Of a stretch of DNA of 64,000 nucleotides, positions 27,001 through 36,000 are shown piece after piece. Origin of the DNA: Planctomycetota bacterium (GTDB lineage Bacteria > Planctomycetota > JAJSAM01 > JAJVHW01); NCBI GenBank assembly GCA_965248445.1, contig CBDFJG010000001.1, positions 160,001 through 224,000 of the forward strand. Direction: 5' to 3'. The position numbers were made by a program. Each line of letters opens with the position of its first letter. Within the stretch, counting starts at the first letter, position 1.

Positions 27001-30000
27001 CACGCGAGCGCGTGGATCCGCTCCGCCTCGTCGTCGTCGTGCAGCGTCAACACCACGCGCGCGTCGGTGCCATCGACACCGAGCCTGCGGACATGCTCGT
27101 CGCCGTCTCCGAACTCCAGCTGGAATCCCGTCAGCAGGGGAATGCTCCCTCGCCAGATCCGGTTCAAGGGCACGTCGATCCGCGGACCTGGAACGGGCGC
27201 CAGGAAGTCCGTTCCGGCGATCGTCGCGCGTGTCGTCCAGCTCCTCGGGAAGAGGATGTAACTCAACTCGATGTCGAATCGCTCTGCGCCGTCATCGTCC
27301 TGGCACGCGGCCCTGATGACGCGCGTACCAGATGCCGCATGGCGTCCCCACGGCCGGATCCCGATCTTGCGGAGGTTGTTCTCCCCGTCCGGGAAGTTGA
27401 ACCGGAAGCCGGTGATGACGAAGACGCTGTCGGGTTCGTCGCGAATCGTCAGATCGCACGTCGACGTGCAGCTCGTGCCCGACGCGAACTGCTGCACCCC
27501 GTAGGAGCTGTCCTCGGGCAAGCCGAAGAACACGCGGCTGCCTTCGCTCCAGCGGAAGTACCGCGCGCTCCCCGCCATCCGGTCGCCGCCATCGCCGTCC
27601 TTCAGTTCAAGGTGGAAGGCGTCGCTCCCGCCGCGCCGCGCGCCCACGCCGATGGACCACAGGGGGCGGTCTCCGCCGGCGAAGCTCAGGTCGAAGCTCT
27701 GGAGCAGCGGCACGAACCCGCCGAGTTCGTCGGTCTCACTCCCCGTCGGGGAGTCGACCGTGACCGTGCATCCGCCGGCGCAAGCGCGGGACACAGCGCA
27801 CGCGGGGAGCGCCCCGAGCAGAGCCACGGCGGCGAGCGCCGCGATAGCCCGCGGCACACGAATCTTCCGACGTCTCGACGATCCCATGCCCATTCAGTCT
27901 AGCCAGATCGGCTGTCTCATGTCGCGCAGCAGACGATCGGGCCGCCGGCAAGCTCCTCGATCAGTTCGCCCACTACGGTTCCGCGGGCCAGGTGATGTGC
28001 GTAGTGCAGGTGTAGGCACTTGACGTTCGCGCGGCTCTGCGTCCCGCCGATGCCGCGGTCCCGGAGCACGTACAGGAAGTTGCTTCCCTCGACGAGCGCG
28101 CGCTCGTCTTCCGACAGCCGCGACCAGCGCTCCGCGACGTACGCGTCGTGGTCGGCACCGAACCGCGCGGCCAGCGCTGGATCATCGCGCAGACGCATCT
28201 CGAGGCGCTCGATCGCGCCGTCCCCCTCGAGCACCGAGAGTGCGCGGTGCGTCTCGTCGCACGCGAGCCAGAAGAGGGTCGGGAACGGCTCCGCACGCGG
28301 ACCGTCCGTGCGGAGCGGATGGCAGATCAGGACACGAGGATGGCCCGCCGCGCAGCGATCTAGCACCTCCGTTCGGATGCCGTCCACCGTGCGCGACGGG
28401 CCACGCATGGGCTCTGTTCGCCCGGCGGTTAGTTGGGGCCGCCGTCCTTACCGGGCGCGGTCGACTCGTCGCACTCTTCCCACTCGATCGAGCAATCGCT
28501 CGGCCCGTCACACTCGGCAGCTTCGGAGCACTCGGCCGCTTCGGAGCACTCGGAGGCCGCTTCGCCGATCGCTTCCGCAGCGACGTCGCCGATCACGCCG
28601 TCCGTCGCGACGTCGAGATCGAGAGTGCAGTCGGTGCACTCACTCTGCTTCACCTGCACGGAGACCGTGGGCTTGTCGAACAGCTCACACTCGGTGAGGG
28701 CGAGACACGAGAATACGGCGGCGAGGATGAACGAACGCATGGGCACTCCTGTAGCGGTGGTGGTCTGTTGGCGAGAGGCGCGCCGGTATCCGGGCGCCGC
28801 TCCGCGGGAGCATATCACCCGCGCGCTCGCTGTCACCCCTCCTGGCGGGGGTAGCGCTTGCGAGCCTCACGTAGCTGGGAAAGCCCGAACTCCGCGTCGT
28901 CCTTCTTCTCGGCGTCCTCGGACATCCGCTCGAACGCCGAGCAGGCTGCCTCGAAGCGGCTCGCGCTGCCGCCCTCGCCGAGCACGTCCTCGGAGATCCC
29001 CAGATAGCCCTCGCCGAGCGCCGTGGCGAAGTCCTCGTCATTGGGGACCTCTCGCTCCTCCCGCTCGGTCGCGGCCGCGCGGGCCTGCTCCAGCGACAGC
29101 GCGAACGCCTCCCGCGACCCCGAGAGATCCCCCAGAGACAAGCGGTGCATACCGAGCGCCCAGTTCGCCATGCTCTTCGGACCGGGTCCCTTCTCGAGCT
29201 CATCCCTCCAGCGAACGCAGTCCTCGGCCGCGCGCAGTCCCGCCTCGAGGTGGCGGCGCTCGCGCGGGAAGGGATCATCCGGCCAGCAGTCGGCCAGAGA
29301 CGCGGAGAGGTTGTAGGAGAGGACGTTCGCGAAGTCCTTGCGGCGGGCCGCGACCTCGGCATCGACCTCGTCGGACGCCTCGCGCAGTCCCTCGCGGATG
29401 CCGGAGCCGGCGATTGCGATCAGAGCGTCGAGGTTCTTGCCCTCCCACTCGTTGTGGGCGAACGCAGACGCCGCGAACAGGTAGAGCTTGCGGCGCTTGA
29501 GGAGGTCCTCGTGGGCCTCGATGTGCGCGACGACCGTGTCGGTGCCGTCGCTCTCCATCAGTGCCTTGAGCTCGTCCCAGCGGTCGTAGGGAAACTCGGT
29601 CTTGTCGGGCATGGGTGGATTGTCTCAGGGACCGGTCATCGATGGAAGCGCCGGAGAGCGTGGCACTGCACGCACGCGGCGTGGTCGTAGGCCGGCCACA
29701 GCACGCTGGTGACCCGATCGGCTTCATCGACCGCCGCCTTGGTGTGGCAGTCTCCGCACGGCACGTCGGCGTGCCCGGCACTCGTGTGTCCGAAGCCCGG
29801 CAGGGCCGCCGTCGTCTTCCGTGCCGCCTTCGACCGTTCGAAGGGGCCCAGCTCGCTGTAGACGAAGAGCAAGCGCCCGTCCTTCCCACGGTTGCCCTCG
29901 AACTCGCGGTCCACGTGGCAGAGCACGCATCTGCCGGCCCCGACGTTCGCGTGGCGGGTGTGACACGCGGTGCAGTCGCGCGTTCCGGGTCGGAACGAGA

Positions 30001-33000: not shown

Positions 33001-36000
33001 CAGATCTCAGCGCGCGACGAGAACGCGCGGAACTGCCCTTCCGCCGCGACGGCACGAACCATGCCCGGCGTCAGCCCGCCGAAGACGTCGAGCGCCGCGA
33101 GGTGGGCCTCCTGCGATCCCTCCGCGAACGTCGCGGGCTCCGGGGCACCTGCGGCCGCGGGTGGCACCGGCTGCCCCGACGGCTGCGGCAGGCCCGGCGG
33201 TTTCGGAGTGCCCGGCGGTTTGGGCGGACCGGGTGGCGTCGGCGCACCGGGTGAGCTCGGCGGCCCCGGCGGCACTGGGAGCTTCGGGGGTTTCGGCGCG
33301 CCGGACGGCGGCGGCGGTGCCGGGGGCGGCGGCGCGCCTGGAGGCTTCGGTGGACCGGGAGGCGTCGGTGGACCGGGAGGCTTCGGCGGACCGGGAGGCT
33401 TCGGAGGACCGGGGGGACCCGCGCTTGCGTCGTCGGGGCGATCGGCGTCGTCTGCGCCCACGTCAGTACCAAATCACCTGGAACACGTGCACTGCGATGA
33501 CGCCGAAGAGCAGCAGCGAGAGCGGGATGTGAATCCACTTCCACACGACGAGCATGCGATCCAACCGGACGGCCGGTGCGGTCACCTCCCGCAGGCGGTC
33601 ACGGGACGCTGCCATGACCGCGAGATCGCGAATCAAGGAAGCAGACTCCGGATGGGCCGGAGCGACCTCATCGAGGACGACCGCATTGCGCCGCGCGATG
33701 GCCGCCTGCGAACGCGCCGTCTTGCGCAGCGGAGCCAGTGCTGTCCGCAGCGGTTCGTCGAGCGTGGCGAGGATGCCGGTCACGCACTGGTGATACGTCG
33801 CCCGCGCGACGCCCGCTTCCTCATACGGAATGCCGGGATCGGCGCGTGAGAGCGCCGGAGGCACGAAGCGGTAGGCCACCGCACCGAACACGCCGGAGAT
33901 CAGGATCAGCGACGAGAGTGTGACCAGCGCCCAGCCGACGTGGTGCCAGACCATCAGGTCCGCGTGCAGCCACACCCCAAGGCACGCGGTGACACCGACG
34001 CCCATGTGCGCCTCGAGCCATGCCTCGAGACGTCCCAACGGCTCGCGACGCACGAGCCGTACGACGCGCACCGTTCGGTCCTGCACGCGCAACGCGGAGA
34101 GCGTCGCCCGCTGGGCGCGATCCACACCGTGATGCACCAGCACCTTGTGGGCCGCCTCGAGGACGCGCTCGTCGCTGGCATAGGCACCGGCGAGGACCTT
34201 GCGATTGACGTCCTGCACGCCCGCCCACGCCGCATCGGTCTGCTCGGGTGTGCGCCGGCCCATGTCACGGACCACGCGCAGCTTGATGCACCACTTTCGC
34301 GCGCTGAAGAGCGCCGCGACGATGAACAGTGCGAGCAGGACGTTGCCCGACCAGAGAAACCAGGTTCGCTCGTCGCCGGGTGATCCGCGAGCCGGCAGAG
34401 CCACGAGAGCCCAGCCGGTGGCGAACGGGATCATCGTCAGTGCCAGCCAGAGCCAAGCGCGCGGTCGCCCGAGGAACCGCACACCGAAGCGGCGGCCGGA
34501 CAGAGTGATCGCGTCGCTCACTCCCCGAGGTTCCTCAGGTAGCCGCGTGGCTCGCGCCGGTGGCACGTCATGCACGTCCGACCCTGGCCGCCCGGGTCTC
34601 CCTCCGGCTTGTCGATGCGCGGGTCGTTGAACCATGCGTCGGCGAACTGCGGATCGTCGTGGATGCTGCTCGTGACCTTCGCGCGCGTGATCCTTTCCTG
34701 GTACGCCGACCCCTCCTGGTACGACGACCCCTGCTGGTACGACGACCCCGAGGCGGACGAGGACCGCTCGTGACACGCAGCGCACGCGCCCGTGCGGTCG
34801 TGCCACTGCGTTCCCGGCAAGAGGTCGATGTGGACGCGGGTGCGCGGCTGATGCGCCGGAGCCGCGTCCCCGACCGGCCACGCACCGCCGTGGCAATGGG
34901 CACAGCGCGTCGCCTCCTCGCGCGACGCCGCGACGCCGGTGCGCCCGAACTTCTGCGTGTCGGCCGGATCGTGCCCGTGGCAACGCGTGCAGTCCGCAAC
35001 GTCCGCCGGGACGTGGTATCCGGTGTCACCGCCGGGCTCGTGGCAGGTGGTGCAGGGGATGCCGTCCGGCGCGCCGATGTACGTCTTGGCCGAGGCGTGC
35101 GATCGGTGGTCGAACTGTGGGACGACGGCCGAAACCCGCCGCACGCCGAGTTCCCCGGGCAGCGCTCCCGCGTGGCAGTCGAGGCATCCACGCGGATCGA
35201 TGCCGGCCCGAGCTGGGCCGACACGTTCCACGTGGGTGTCGAAGCGGGAGAGATCCTCGCTCCACGATGTCGTGGCTGCCGTCGCGTGGCAACCGAGGCA
35301 CTCCGCTGAGGTCGGGAGATCGCTGACGTGCGGTGCGTGGTCGAACGTGCGCCCGGTAAGGCGCGACGGCACGGTCTCGTTGTCCGCGACGTGACAGTCG
35401 CTGCACGTCTTCCCGTCCGGCTGGGAGTCGTCGACGAGCACCGCACCGTTCGTCGTCACTCCGGGATGCGCATGCACGCCGAACGCGACGGCTTCGACGT
35501 CGTCCCGTTCGACCCGGGCGGTCGCGACGGCGAGGGCGCCGTCCGCCTCGAGATCTCCCGAGTGGCACTTGAAGCAGGCCCACGCGCCGACTCCGTGATT
35601 CGCCACACTCCATGTAGCGTGACACGGCGCGCAGGCGCGGTACTCGATCAGCTCTGCGCGGCCCACCGGCTCGGTCGAATTGCTGCCCGAACCTCTGCCG
35701 GAACCGCTGCGCAGGGGGAAGAGCGAGGCAGCCGCCGCATCCGTCTCCGGGAAGTGGCAAGTCCGGCATCCCGCTGTCACGGCGCCGCTCGTCTCCACGG
35801 TCCCGGCCGGCACAAGATGCGCACTGTGGGGAAAGCGGTCGAACGCGACGTATGGCAACTTGCTCGTCCGGGCGGGCGTCGCCACGCCCGCTAGCGCCGT
35901 ACCCGCCGCGTCGGCAACGTGGCAGGCGGAGCAGCGATCGCGGGTGTCGGTCGCGGGGTCGTAGTCCCAGATGGTCTGACTTGCGCGGATGCCCGCATGG

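Follow-up and report, generated by a model that had tools for sequence, protein, structure and literature searches.

The analysed window, a 64,000-nucleotide stretch of a planctomycete contig, contains an operon of five translationally coupled genes on the minus strand. At all four junctions of the series g00184, g00183, g00182, g00181/g00180 and g00179, the start and stop codons overlap or lie 1 nt apart. The first gene, g00184 (36674..37684), encodes two canonical FHA domains (Pfam FHA, 4.5e-30, two stretches) and a C-terminal transmembrane anchor (residues 308-336). It is followed by g00183 (34518..36677), which overlaps the adjoining genes at both its start and stop and encodes an 18-haem cytochrome c whose N-terminus is a signal peptide or anchor, and by g00182 (33463..34521), which encodes a membrane protein of five transmembrane (TM) helices with two cytoplasmic inserts. 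The next gene, for a cNMP-binding ferredoxin, is split into g00181 (32047..33461) and g00180 (31669..32046), and the last, g00179 (29636..31672), encodes a 15-haem cytochrome. On the plus strand, divergent from the operon, lie g00185 (37677..39758), encoding an FHA-GAF-adenylate/guanylate cyclase, and g00186 (39778..40554), encoding a class II cAMP phosphodiesterase of the metallo-β-lactamase fold. Pfam searches and CXXCH counts agree with a preliminary description on these flanking genes, from g00183 to g00186. The operon encodes no electron donor or flavoprotein, and Pfam detected neither a catalytic or quinone-linked enzyme within it nor a porin among its neighbours.

The 678-residue g00179 begins with a GTG that overlaps the closing TGA of the ferredoxin frame upstream. 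It consists of an N-terminal FHA-fold domain (residues 1-125; 31298..31672, minus strand), a TM helix (residues 149-168) and a periplasmic cytochrome c domain (residues 200-678) with 15 CXXCH motifs spread over residues 200-667. Pfam search revealed a Yop-YscD_cpl match at residues 24-98 (E 9e-9, 35.9 bits, cut-off 33.2), in addition to matches to Cytochrome_C7 and MtrC II/IV. The AlphaFold2 (AF2) model has a pLDDT of ~90 across residues 1-125, and a Foldseek search with this fold gave 42 hits at E≤1e-3, the best of which are FHA domains. Hydropathy analysis revealed a single hydrophobic helix at residues 149-176, with Arg on its N-terminal side and Asp/Glu on its C-terminal side, and AF2 places the helix at residues 150-168. 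These results confirm the domain composition given earlier and support a membrane-anchored multihaem cytochrome with an FHA fold on the cytoplasmic side. The reported conservation is also borne out: full-length orthologues without stops are present in 7/7 genomes of the same family and 2/5 of a sister family, and exactly 15 CXXCH motifs occur in 37 of 38 full-length family members, the remaining one having 14 plus one CX4CH. Among 30 sequences, the 15 CXXCH motifs are accompanied by 14 invariant and one near-invariant extra His, a pattern that would fit transfer haems with bis-His ligation throughout.

The FHA fold of g00179 is non-canonical. Alignment with canonical FHA domains showed that the arginine of the GR motif is replaced by Ser/Thr, the serine of SxxH by Ala and the asparagine of NG by Thr/Ala/Ser; the SxxH histidine is also gone from the cytochrome-attached FHA domains in the clade of g00179. 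By contrast, the residues of all three motifs are retained in the FHA domains of g00184 and g00185. As the residues that contact phosphothreonine are missing, the earlier view of this domain as a phosphothreonine-reading module is not supported.

What had been described as a tandem cNMP-binding protein, g00181, does possess two cNMP-binding domains (Pfam cNMP_binding, 1.1e-38, two stretches) but represents only the N-terminal part of a larger protein. In 9/9 orthologous loci the cNMP-binding region runs on, in a single open frame, into a ferredoxin with four Cys motifs, and all 16 of its cysteines are invariant in 20 sequences. In the window, g00181 carries a Pro-rich start, the two cNMP-binding domains and Cys motifs 1 and 2, whereas g00180 carries Cys motifs 3 and 4. 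Both cNMP-binding domains of g00181 retain the Gly-Glu and Arg of the phosphate-binding cassette; in two homologues (loci L023 and L027), domain 1 has lost this Arg. Neither a hydrophobic segment nor a signal peptide was found in g00181, and Fer4_11 scores above its cut-off in relatives.

Three-frame translation revealed that the gene is split by the loss of one base near 32046 (frameshift site 32044..32048, minus strand), within a GAIR-RDR stretch that is invariant in 20/20 relatives; the g00181 ORF as listed continues out of frame to 31881. The frameshifted sequence is identical in Logan contigs from 4/4 runs, with 0 differences and 0 gaps. Both observations would suit a decaying relic, in which the frameshift kills the FeS subunit and the other genes are heading for loss. 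We nevertheless regard this reading as doubtful, since every other gene in the cluster is intact and all CXXCH motifs and His residues are retained. Moreover, the four runs stem from one sample, possibly the source of the assembly itself, so that a systematic read error is possible. A two-piece ferredoxin is also conceivable, as a GTG at 32028, preceded by a purine-rich stretch, may serve as the start of g00180.

The preceding gene product, g00182 (352 residues), was previously assigned four TM helices, which AF2 (pLDDT 87) and hydropathy analysis correct to five. Two W-x3-H-x13-H motifs place H172 and H186 on TM3, and H331 and H345 on TM5. The four His residues are invariant in 20/20 sequences and conserved in 141/141, 141/141, 130/130 and 129/130 aligned representatives sharing at most 50% identity with one another. 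The two motifs with their four invariant His residues suggest that g00182 is a candidate di-haem cytochrome b. It has no Pfam family match, and neither a solved structure by sequence search nor a clear fold by structure comparison was found; its distant relatives show sub-threshold matches to DUF4405, Ni_hydr_CYTB or Ferric_reduct, or carry multihaem c domains as fusions.

To model the interface, g00182 and FeS orthologues from one relative genome were paired, with two haems included as ligand. The prediction reached a score of 0.61 (runs 0.61, 0.34 and 0.61), against 0.01 for the top of three controls. Of 157 solved complexes 116 attain this mark, compared to 2 of 215 mismatched pairs; both counts apply only roughly here, since custom alignments and a ligand entered the prediction. 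Between runs, at least 8% of contacts are shared, and the partner pLDDT of 60-64 indicates moderate confidence, one run being weaker. In the predicted interface, Cys motifs 1 and 4 contact an invariant GRLE-W stretch on the cytoplasmic end of TM3, the predicted docking site of the ferredoxin domain.

The number of 18 CXXCH in g00183 is the same in 7/7 orthologues, and in class I loci, which belong to Planctomycetota, the 17/18-haem gene has a conserved neighbour of the g00184 type. The true start of g00185 probably lies near 37794, because its orthologues align from residue 41-53. The cyclase and phosphodiesterase genes are adjacent in 5/5 family loci that extend that far (L013, L014, L015, L017 and L021); the pair is not adjacent in distant class I loci, and a cyclase, with or without the phosphodiesterase, lies near three class II loci (L055, L058 and L060). 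A 1299-residue open frame with 10 CXXCH motifs (19736..23632, plus strand), which contains LVIVD repeats and, following a hydrophobic N-terminus, a lipobox-like LGAC, is a probable further member of the system. In L017, L018 and L019 its orthologue directly adjoins the FHA-cytochrome gene, and in eight class I loci (L023, L024, L027 and L035-L038 among them) it lies upstream of the operon, beside the double-FHA gene. As for haem supply, the organism had been described as seemingly unable to make haem. ALAD and two cytochrome-c-assembly genes were found, and among 17 genomes of the order HemC is absent only from this 92%-complete one; the apparent lack is thus probably an assembly gap.

The core of cNMP-FeS protein, candidate di-haem b and multihaem c recurs across several phyla, and the conserved module proposed earlier is supported by the position of the cNMP gene directly upstream of the g00179-family gene in 9/9 loci. 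In class I loci, two cNMP stretches plus Fer4 occur in 11/11 ferredoxin ORFs scanned, and FHA in 10/10 15-haem ORFs scanned. In class II loci (Acidobacteriota, Verrucomicrobiota, Alphaproteobacteria and Phycisphaerae), cNMP plus Fer4 occur in 12/12 ferredoxin ORFs scanned. In other phyla, some FeS proteins are further fused to modules of NAD(P)H-flavoprotein or NuoG-like type, combining Pyr_redox, cNMP and Fer4 in L044, and Fer2_4, Fer4_Nqo3, cNMP and Fer4 in L054 and L062. L044 also joins b, FHA and a 9-haem c within a single open frame, and three loci (L041, L045 and L046) have b and multihaem c without the ferredoxin.

Two well-known systems offer a comparison. In respiratory nitrate reductase, the four-cluster ferredoxin-type subunit NarH sits on the cytoplasmic face of the di-haem b subunit NarI, and in this and related pairs electrons cross the membrane via two stacked b haems. 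The window differs in lacking a molybdopterin catalytic subunit, in its b family (five TM helices, His on TM3 and TM5), in having a multihaem c chain, and not just quinol, as the outer partner, and in the cNMP domains of its FeS subunit. In NADPH oxidases, ferric reductases and STEAP proteins (PF01794), two His pairs on TM3 and TM5 hold haem b, and a cytoplasmic reductant feeds an acceptor outside; in L044, the relative of the FeS subunit is a fusion with an NAD(P)H flavoprotein. However, these proteins have six TM helices and take electrons directly from FAD, whereas g00182 has five and electrons would enter via FeS clusters. PF01794 does not match g00182; among its distant relatives only one matches, below the cut-off. 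Structural comparison gave STEAP4 (6hcy_C; Z 8.3, rmsd 4.6, 157 aligned) and STEAP1 (6y9b_C; Z 8.1), with Z ~8 falling within the noise for helical bundles.

In the portions of the sources covered here, the closest described gene sets, PCC3/PCC4, ptdEFG and NHC, are known from in silico work. The PCC3/PCC4 clusters were defined purely in silico (He, Barco, Emerson, Roden 2017, Front Microbiol 8:1584, PMC5566968). Their inner-membrane protein has five TM helices, of which TM3 and TM5 carry W-x3-H-x13-H and TM4 carries SGxxG, and two b haems were proposed for it; g00182, with both His motifs and SGxxG, bears the same signature, and multihaem cytochromes are adjacent in both. In PCC4 subgroup II, whose reported hosts include Planctomycetes, a pfam13247 Fe-S gene lies beside the membrane protein. 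The differences are that PCC4 comprises a porin and 4-, 5- and 10-haem cytochromes, compared to 15-, 18- and 10-haem ones without a porin (by Pfam) in the window; that the PCC4 order is FeS, b, c, compared to b, FeS, c in the window; that g00182 is longer, with its inserts; and that cNMP or FHA domains, present in the window, find no mention for PCC3/PCC4 in the passages covered. The authors proposed that electrons move inwards, from Fe(II) into the quinone pool.

Of the proteins encoded by the ptdABCDEFG cluster (bioRxiv 10.1101/2023.11.21.568154, 2024 preprint), PtdE is a 4Fe-4S cluster protein of the cNMP-binding type, PtdF a membrane protein resembling ferric reductases, and PtdG a multihaem cytochrome of the periplasm; the class II loci match this make-up. 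Unlike the window, the ptd cluster also has a porin, pentahaem and tetrahaem cytochromes and a separate FAD/NAD(P) oxidoreductase; the window has other haem numbers, a double-FHA membrane protein and an adjacent cyclase/phosphodiesterase pair, and the part of the preprint covered contains 0 occurrences of FHA. In Ferrigenium straubiae, the 'NHC' cluster (bioRxiv 10.64898/2026.01.22.701106, 2026 preprint), reported to be expressed under every condition tested, includes a multihaem cytochrome that itself bears an FHA domain and a single TM helix; its neighbours are a five-TM protein with no match in databases and a [4Fe-4S] protein of the cytosol. That cytochrome has nine haems and belongs to a betaproteobacterium, compared to the 15 haems of the planctomycete g00179; in the portion covered, the authors assign no haem b to the five-TM protein, and section 6.3.2 makes no mention of cNMP.

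With the ferredoxin and the candidate di-haem b, both missed in the preliminary description, the FeS, haem b and haem c carriers would form a complete chain across the membrane. That description favoured extracytoplasmic redox sensing coupled to FHA/cAMP signalling. Its tie to cAMP is real, given the cNMP domains on a module subunit and the cyclase and phosphodiesterase adjacent in the family loci. In such a sensor, the haem chain would report the extracytoplasmic redox state, the FHA, cNMP, cyclase and phosphodiesterase parts would convert it to a cAMP or phosphothreonine signal, and electron flux would be signal only, not metabolism. Three subunits bear regulatory domains, catalytic and quinone-linked enzymes are missing from the operon, and the genome has 62 Pkinase matches, yet sensing seems rather improbable: cNMP domains receive cAMP and do not emit it, Pfam recognised no output domain in the cNMP-FeS protein of the window or of the class I loci scanned, and the FHA of g00179 lacks its phosphothreonine contacts. 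Moreover, 33 to 43 c haems, two b haems and four clusters would far exceed the need of a sensor, and the Pyr_redox and NuoG-like fusions elsewhere suggest bulk electron input. The complete chain, the missing output domain and these fusions make sensing less likely than conduction. A quinone-linked cytochrome bc-type module, in which g00182, as quinol dehydrogenase or quinone reductase, would link the quinone pool to the periplasmic multihaem cytochromes in either direction and the FeS protein would have an accessory or side-branch role, appears unlikely as well, because the cNMP-ferredoxin gene is adjacent in all class I and class II loci scanned, its ferredoxin domain is predicted to dock on g00182, and no quinone site was identified. 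However, such a role was proposed for the same inner-membrane-protein signature, and PCC4 subgroup I is without the Fe-S gene (PMC5566968); the H-x13-H helix pair is reminiscent of cytochrome b and ferric-reductase domains, and the three loci without ferredoxin fit as well. This role is compatible with a conduit, and both routes could exist.

We therefore lean towards the operon being a cAMP-gated transmembrane electron conduit rather than a redox sensor. As the FeS gene is frameshifted here, the wire may be impaired or dead in this organism, or may function from two pieces. We propose that the cytoplasmic four-cluster ferredoxin, with the two cNMP-binding domains fused to it, binds to the face of g00182 that points to the cytoplasm. 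The four invariant His residues of g00182 would hold two b haems stacked across the inner membrane. On the outer side, electrons would pass to or from the 15-haem g00179, the 18-haem g00183 and probably the 10-haem LVIVD protein; we favour a flow from the cytoplasm to the outside. The FHA fold of g00179 would act as a docking domain that binds no phosphopeptide, whereas the canonical FHA domains of g00184 and the cyclase would connect the system to Ser/Thr kinases encoded elsewhere. cAMP made by the adjacent cyclase and removed by the adjacent phosphodiesterase would bind the cNMP domains and thereby switch electron flow or assembly, an effect of cAMP on electron transfer for which we know of no precedent.

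The five minus-strand genes of the operon have overlapping or nearly touching ends, in a window with a G+C content of ~69%. The double-FHA gene g00184 (36674..37684) shares an ATGA with g00183 (34518..36677), which in turn shares a GTGA with g00182 (33463..34521). The stop of g00182 lies one base from the GTG (33461) of the next gene, a ferredoxin with cyclic-nucleotide-binding domains (cNMP-ferredoxin), and the last frame of the latter shares a GTGA with the start of g00179 (29636..31672), which encodes the FHA-15-haem cytochrome. Multihaem genes flank g00182 on both sides. The flanking genes agree with the preliminary description, including 18 CXXCH motifs in g00183, two FHA domains and a C-terminal anchor in g00184, an FHA-GAF-cyclase (g00185) and a class II phosphodiesterase (PDE; g00186). 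Altogether, the original observation is real but was incompletely read: the operon represents a planctomycete variant of a kind of system noticed earlier in silico, one subunit of which is frameshifted in this genome.

The overall organization of g00179 is as previously described, with 678 residues and 15 CXXCH motifs, all located after residue 200 and C-terminal of the transmembrane helix. Residues 24-98 match Pfam Yop-YscD_cpl (E 9e-9, 35.9 bits against a cut-off of 33.2), and the single hydrophobic helix (residues 149-176) has positive charges on its N side. In the AlphaFold2 model, residues 1-125 form a β-sandwich (pLDDT ~90) followed by a helix at residues 150-168, in addition to a poorly modelled haem domain (mean pLDDT 68.6). 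Structural similarity search of the sandwich using Foldseek revealed 42 matches at E<=1e-3, the best of which are OdhI/GarA, CT664 and EmbR (E ~2e-5; target TM-scores 0.6-0.77), so that the sandwich groups with FHA domains. PF00498 itself was not reported for g00179 at E<=0.01; it was reported for the 10 related 15-haem open reading frames (ORFs) scanned and for a fused protein of locus L044, described below. Beyond the 15 CXXCH motifs, g00179 has 14 invariant histidines and one near-invariant histidine. This set of 14-15 extra conserved histidines fits bis-His transfer haems without an open catalytic site.

The preliminary description took this FHA domain for a phosphothreonine reader, a claim that its sequence does not bear out. 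The phosphothreonine-contact residues of FHA domains are the Arg of a GR motif, the Ser and His of SxxH and the Asn of NG. Alignment against three clearly canonical neighbours, namely domains 1 and 2 of g00184 and the domain of g00185, showed that every contact residue is kept in these three. In the g00179 clade, the corresponding sites read GS, AQQA/AQEA and TG/AG/SG, with Ser in place of the GR arginine, Ala at the Ser and the His position of SxxH alike, and Thr, Ala or Ser in place of the NG asparagine. The distant cytochrome-attached FHA domains of the class I loci described below, which match PF00498 at E 1e-10 to 1e-14, show G[ST], A..H and TG, having kept the His and lost the Arg, Ser and Asn. 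Among the cytochrome-attached FHA domains, only that of L044 keeps the GR, and it retains the GR and His only. Judged from these residues, the FHA fold of g00179 is not that of a canonical phosphothreonine reader. Genome-wide, 62 matches to Ser/Thr kinases (Pkinase) were found; none lies in the window, and on the contig the nearest ones precede the window by ~41 kb and follow it by ~163 kb.

The membrane protein g00182 had been assigned four transmembrane helices, whereas hydropathy analysis gives five (residues 22-45, 52-81, 167-190, 193-225 and 322-352). Its AlphaFold2 model (pLDDT 87) likewise has five helices (residues 20-41, 48-78, 165-186, 194-227 and 291-351) and two cytoplasmic inserts. 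The motif W-x3-H-x13-H occurs twice, as W168/H172/H186 on TM3 and W327/H331/H345 on TM5, and is invariant in 20 of 20 sequences. In addition, TM4 carries an SGxxG motif (S209-G210-V-F-G213), of which G210 is invariant in all three alignments and G213 in the 54-sequence one. Searching 1.84 billion representatives with a profile yielded 964 relatives (E<=1e-3), and in the 150 best-scoring of them the four histidines are kept in 141/141, 141/141, 130/130 and 129/130 of the sequences aligned at those columns. Some distant relatives have sub-threshold matches to DUF4405, cytochrome b561 or ferric reductase, and others are fused to multihaem c domains. We regard g00182 as a candidate five-helix di-haem cytochrome b.

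No Pfam family matches g00182 at E<=0.01, including the ferric reductase family PF01794, for which the score of one distant relative, P0199, is 19.7 bits, below the cut-off of 28. The 64 close family members in a set of 5.8 billion proteins are all unnamed or 'hypothetical'. Foldseek against the PDB gave no match at E<=0.001, and the g00182 profile against PDB sequences found nothing below E 0.13. A wide VIA-align search returned helical-bundle entries only, with Z up to 9.6, including a designed two-haem protein (PDB 7ah0, Z 8.9), which is too weak for a fold assignment. The similarity to STEAP4 (Z 8.3, RMSD of 4.6 over 157 aligned residues) and STEAP1 (Z 8.1) is in the range of unrelated helical bundles.

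The gene between g00182 and g00179 was originally read as a tandem cNMP-binding protein. The two cNMP domains stand (PF00027, E 1.1e-38 over two stretches); the protein as described is incomplete, being part of a cNMP-ferredoxin that is split in the window. The 526-residue ORF (31881..33461) has two ferredoxin-type Cys motifs near its end, after which it goes out of frame, and the adjacent frame adds two more, up to a stop overlapping the start of g00179. In all nine orthologous loci a single open frame encodes the whole cNMP-ferredoxin, including its four Cys motifs (CxxCxxCxxxC, CxxCx4CxxxC, CxxCxxCxxxCP and CxxCxnCxxxCP, spread over two frames in the window), and all 16 cysteines are invariant across 20 aligned sequences. 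Fer4_11 (PF13247) scores above the cut-off in relatives, and the N-terminal ORF of the window gives sub-threshold Fer4 matches only. Four-cluster ferredoxins of the NrfC/DmsB/NarH type bear a Tat signal when they are periplasmic. As it has no twin-arginine motif, signal peptide or hydrophobic segment, the cNMP-ferredoxin is probably cytoplasmic, and the fused cNMP domains would imply the same. The phosphate-binding cassette of cNMP domains contains a Gly-Glu and an Arg; both are kept in the window protein and its close orthologues, as FGE...PR[NS]AT in domain 1 and FGE...PR(G)S in domain 2.

The split arises from one base missing near position 32046, inside an invariant GAIR-RDR stretch. Logan contigs from four runs cover 31500-32700 with zero differences and zero gaps. 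The four runs come from one sample of one study and may be the assembly's own source, and they do not provide independent evidence on the organism. Since the contigs of all four runs are identical there, the loss cannot be blamed on a single assembler. As the remaining genes of the cluster are intact, the event must be recent or else tolerated. Programmed frameshifting seems unlikely: a -1 step after CGC would be required to restore the conserved reading, and the sequence at this point does not form a slippery X XXY YYZ heptamer. A GTG at 32028 is a possible start of a separate 119-residue C-terminal piece.

Complex prediction was performed with the b protein and the ferredoxin domain from one relative genome, including two haems. 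The pair scored 0.61 (individual runs 0.61, 0.34 and 0.61), compared to 0.01 for the best of three controls. Among reference pairs, 116 of 157 solved complexes attain this mark, as do 2 of 215 mismatched pairs; this calibration is rough here given the custom alignments and the ligand. The runs share at least 8% of contacts, and the partner has a pLDDT of at least 60. In the predicted interface, Cys motifs 1 and 4 face the invariant GRLE-W stretch that immediately precedes TM3, at the cytoplasmic histidine. The prediction supports, but is no proof of, binding of the ferredoxin domain to the b protein.

All seven genomes of the same family contain a full-length orthologue of g00179, as do two of five genomes of a sister family. 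Wherever the contig reaches, the family order is kept: PDE, cyclase and then, divergently, the double-FHA, 18-haem, b, cNMP-ferredoxin and FHA-15-haem genes. When species-representative genomes were scanned with a distant b-protein sub-family, 40 loci were recovered, which include two forms. Class I loci (L023-L039) belong almost exclusively to Planctomycetota bins and encode a 17-haem cytochrome c, the b protein, a ferredoxin with two cNMP domains and an FHA-15-haem cytochrome c, usually together with a double-FHA gene; Pfam reported both cNMP domains and Fer4 in 11/11 ferredoxin ORFs scanned and FHA in 10/10 15-haem ORFs scanned. Eight class I loci (given as L023, L024, L027 and L035-L038) have a 10-haem LVIVD protein in front. 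Class II loci occur in Acidobacteriota, Verrucomicrobiota, Alphaproteobacteria, Phycisphaerae and others, and consist of a 4-haem cytochrome c, a cNMP-ferredoxin, a shorter b protein and a 10-haem cytochrome c; all 12 ferredoxin ORFs scanned have cNMP and Fer4 domains. Of 301 Planctomycetota genomes sampled, 68 have the b family (E<=1e-10) and 23 the full-length class I form.

Several loci carry fused versions of these subunits. The ferredoxin of L044 has an N-terminal pyridine-nucleotide-disulphide oxidoreductase domain, and those of L054 and L062 have a 2Fe-2S domain and a NuoG-type N-terminus. In three Thermoanaerobaculia/Acidobacteriota bins, the short di-haem b and a 9-10-haem cytochrome c share one open frame (L044, 6786-9236; L052, 6793-9450; L059, 6790-9579), as would be expected if two subunits had fused naturally; the L044 frame also contains an FHA domain, placed between its b part and its 9-haem cytochrome. 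These fusions tie the iron-sulfur subunit to a cytoplasmic electron input, and the b protein physically to the FHA-cytochrome. In L041, L045 and L046 (Myxococcales and Fibrobacteria), the short b protein is accompanied by cytochromes with 19 to 31 CXXCH motifs, and no ferredoxin gene lies close by; these loci may represent a ferredoxin-free branch of the b family.

Comparison with systems in the literature places the operon among in silico precedents. According to He et al. 2017 (PMC5566968), the PCC3/PCC4 clusters contain a five-helix protein with two W-x3-H-x13-H motifs and an SGxxG motif, for which two b haems were proposed, and PCC4 subgroup II, which includes Planctomycetes, has an adjacent pfam13247 Fe-S gene. 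All three signature features of this inner-membrane protein are present in g00182. PCC3/PCC4 proper have a porin beside the multihaem genes; a Pfam scan, without a dedicated β-barrel search, matched no porin among the window neighbours. The ptdABCDEFG operon (bioRxiv 10.1101/2023.11.21.568154) is described as encoding a cNMP/4Fe-4S protein, a ferric-reductase-like membrane protein and a decahaem cytochrome, and the accessible part of that preprint does not mention FHA. The window has all three components of this ptdEFG-type module, but differs in gene order and haem numbers, and class II loci are closer to ptd. According to a Ferrigenium preprint (bioRxiv 10.64898/2026.01.22.701106), an FHA-nonahaem cytochrome lies beside a five-helix protein and a [4Fe-4S] protein, and the combination of FHA with a multihaem cytochrome is stated to be unreported before. 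Literature searches on FHA or cNMP/4Fe-4S proteins with multiheme cytochromes, on PCC4 from 2018 and on extracellular electron transfer and cyclic nucleotides in Planctomycetes retrieved no experimental study.

Further multihaem and redox genes lie around the operon. A 1299-residue, 10-haem open frame (19736..23632) has LVIVD repeats (β-propeller) and a lipobox-like LGAC after a hydrophobic N-terminus; its orthologue directly adjoins that of g00179 in three relatives, and the protein may occupy the outermost redox position in the system. Between this gene and the operon (23713-26893) lie two adjacent paralogous HEAT-repeat proteins (532 and 524 residues) with Pro-rich regions, a pair absent at this place in orthologous loci. 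These two ORFs and a 319-residue ORF have no match in related loci, a 259-residue ORF (28833..29612) has no orthologue there, and a DUF501 neighbour is matched in L015 only; none was retained as a module member. After the phosphodiesterase, a DeoC-family aldolase is followed by a two-subunit 2-oxoacid:ferredoxin oxidoreductase (40914-44887); L013, L015 and L021 show the same order, and L017 likewise has DeoC. The oxidoreductase could supply reduced ferredoxin to the iron-sulfur subunit, or its position could equally be mere family synteny. Farther out, a 731-residue ORF (15775-17967) ends in an HbpS-like haem-degrading/binding domain (PF03928, E 1.8e-23), and an MbnB/TglH/ChrH-family RiPP precursor-modifying enzyme (46540-47850; PF05114, E 2.8e-99) hints at a peptide natural-product locus nearby.

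The preliminary description also suggested that the organism seems unable to make haem. Profiles for HemC, HemE and ferrochelatase found nothing in this 92%-complete genome, in which ALAD and two cytochrome c assembly genes (Cytochrom_C_asm matches) are present. Of the 17 genomes of the order, all 16 others have HemC; with ALAD retained here, we reject haem auxotrophy, and the missing genes probably reflect a gap in the assembly.

We propose that the cytoplasmic iron-sulfur chain of the cNMP-ferredoxin would hand electrons to the two b haems across the membrane, which would pass them to the 15 + 18 (+10) c haems outside, with cAMP as the gate of this flow. Because the cNMP-ferredoxin has no recognised output domain, we infer that cAMP controls the ferredoxin itself, i.e. 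its electron transfer or assembly. Cyclase and PDE are adjacent to the operon throughout the family, and three class II loci have a cyclase nearby, one of them with a PDE; in most of the distant class I loci, they are not adjacent. Flow from the cytoplasm to the outside is favoured on thermodynamic grounds and by the NAD(P)H-type fusions, while He et al. 2017 (PMC5566968) propose inward flow to quinone for related PCC clusters. The preliminary description saw in the module a likely redox sensor coupled to FHA/cAMP signalling, which appears less likely than a regulated electron conduit. Tentatively, and with more doubt than confidence, we extend the conduit reading to a scheme in which cAMP, produced and degraded by the neighbouring enzymes, binds the iron-sulfur subunit and directly gates a wire of ~43 c haems that could span the wide planctomycete periplasm, the cyclase is under FHA/phosphothreonine control, and the FHA domain of the cytochrome serves as a phospho-independent assembly domain.

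The practical gain is a corrected annotation, comprising a split cNMP-ferredoxin gene, a putative di-haem b and a non-canonical FHA domain. If the proposal is true, many bacteria, seen so far among Planctomycetota, Acidobacteriota, Verrucomicrobiota and Proteobacteria, would share a route by which electrons move between cytoplasm and multihaem cytochromes with no evident quinone step, and the iron-sulfur subunit of this route always bears cyclic-nucleotide sensors. Under the extended scheme, cAMP would control extracellular electron transfer post-translationally. An electron-transfer chain gated directly by a small molecule would represent a new type of respiratory control, bearing on metal cycling and electroactive communities. 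The planctomycete form has the fullest equipment of all versions, namely 15 + 18 + 10 haems, a double-FHA anchor protein and an adjacent cyclase and phosphodiesterase, which makes it well suited to dissecting the regulation.
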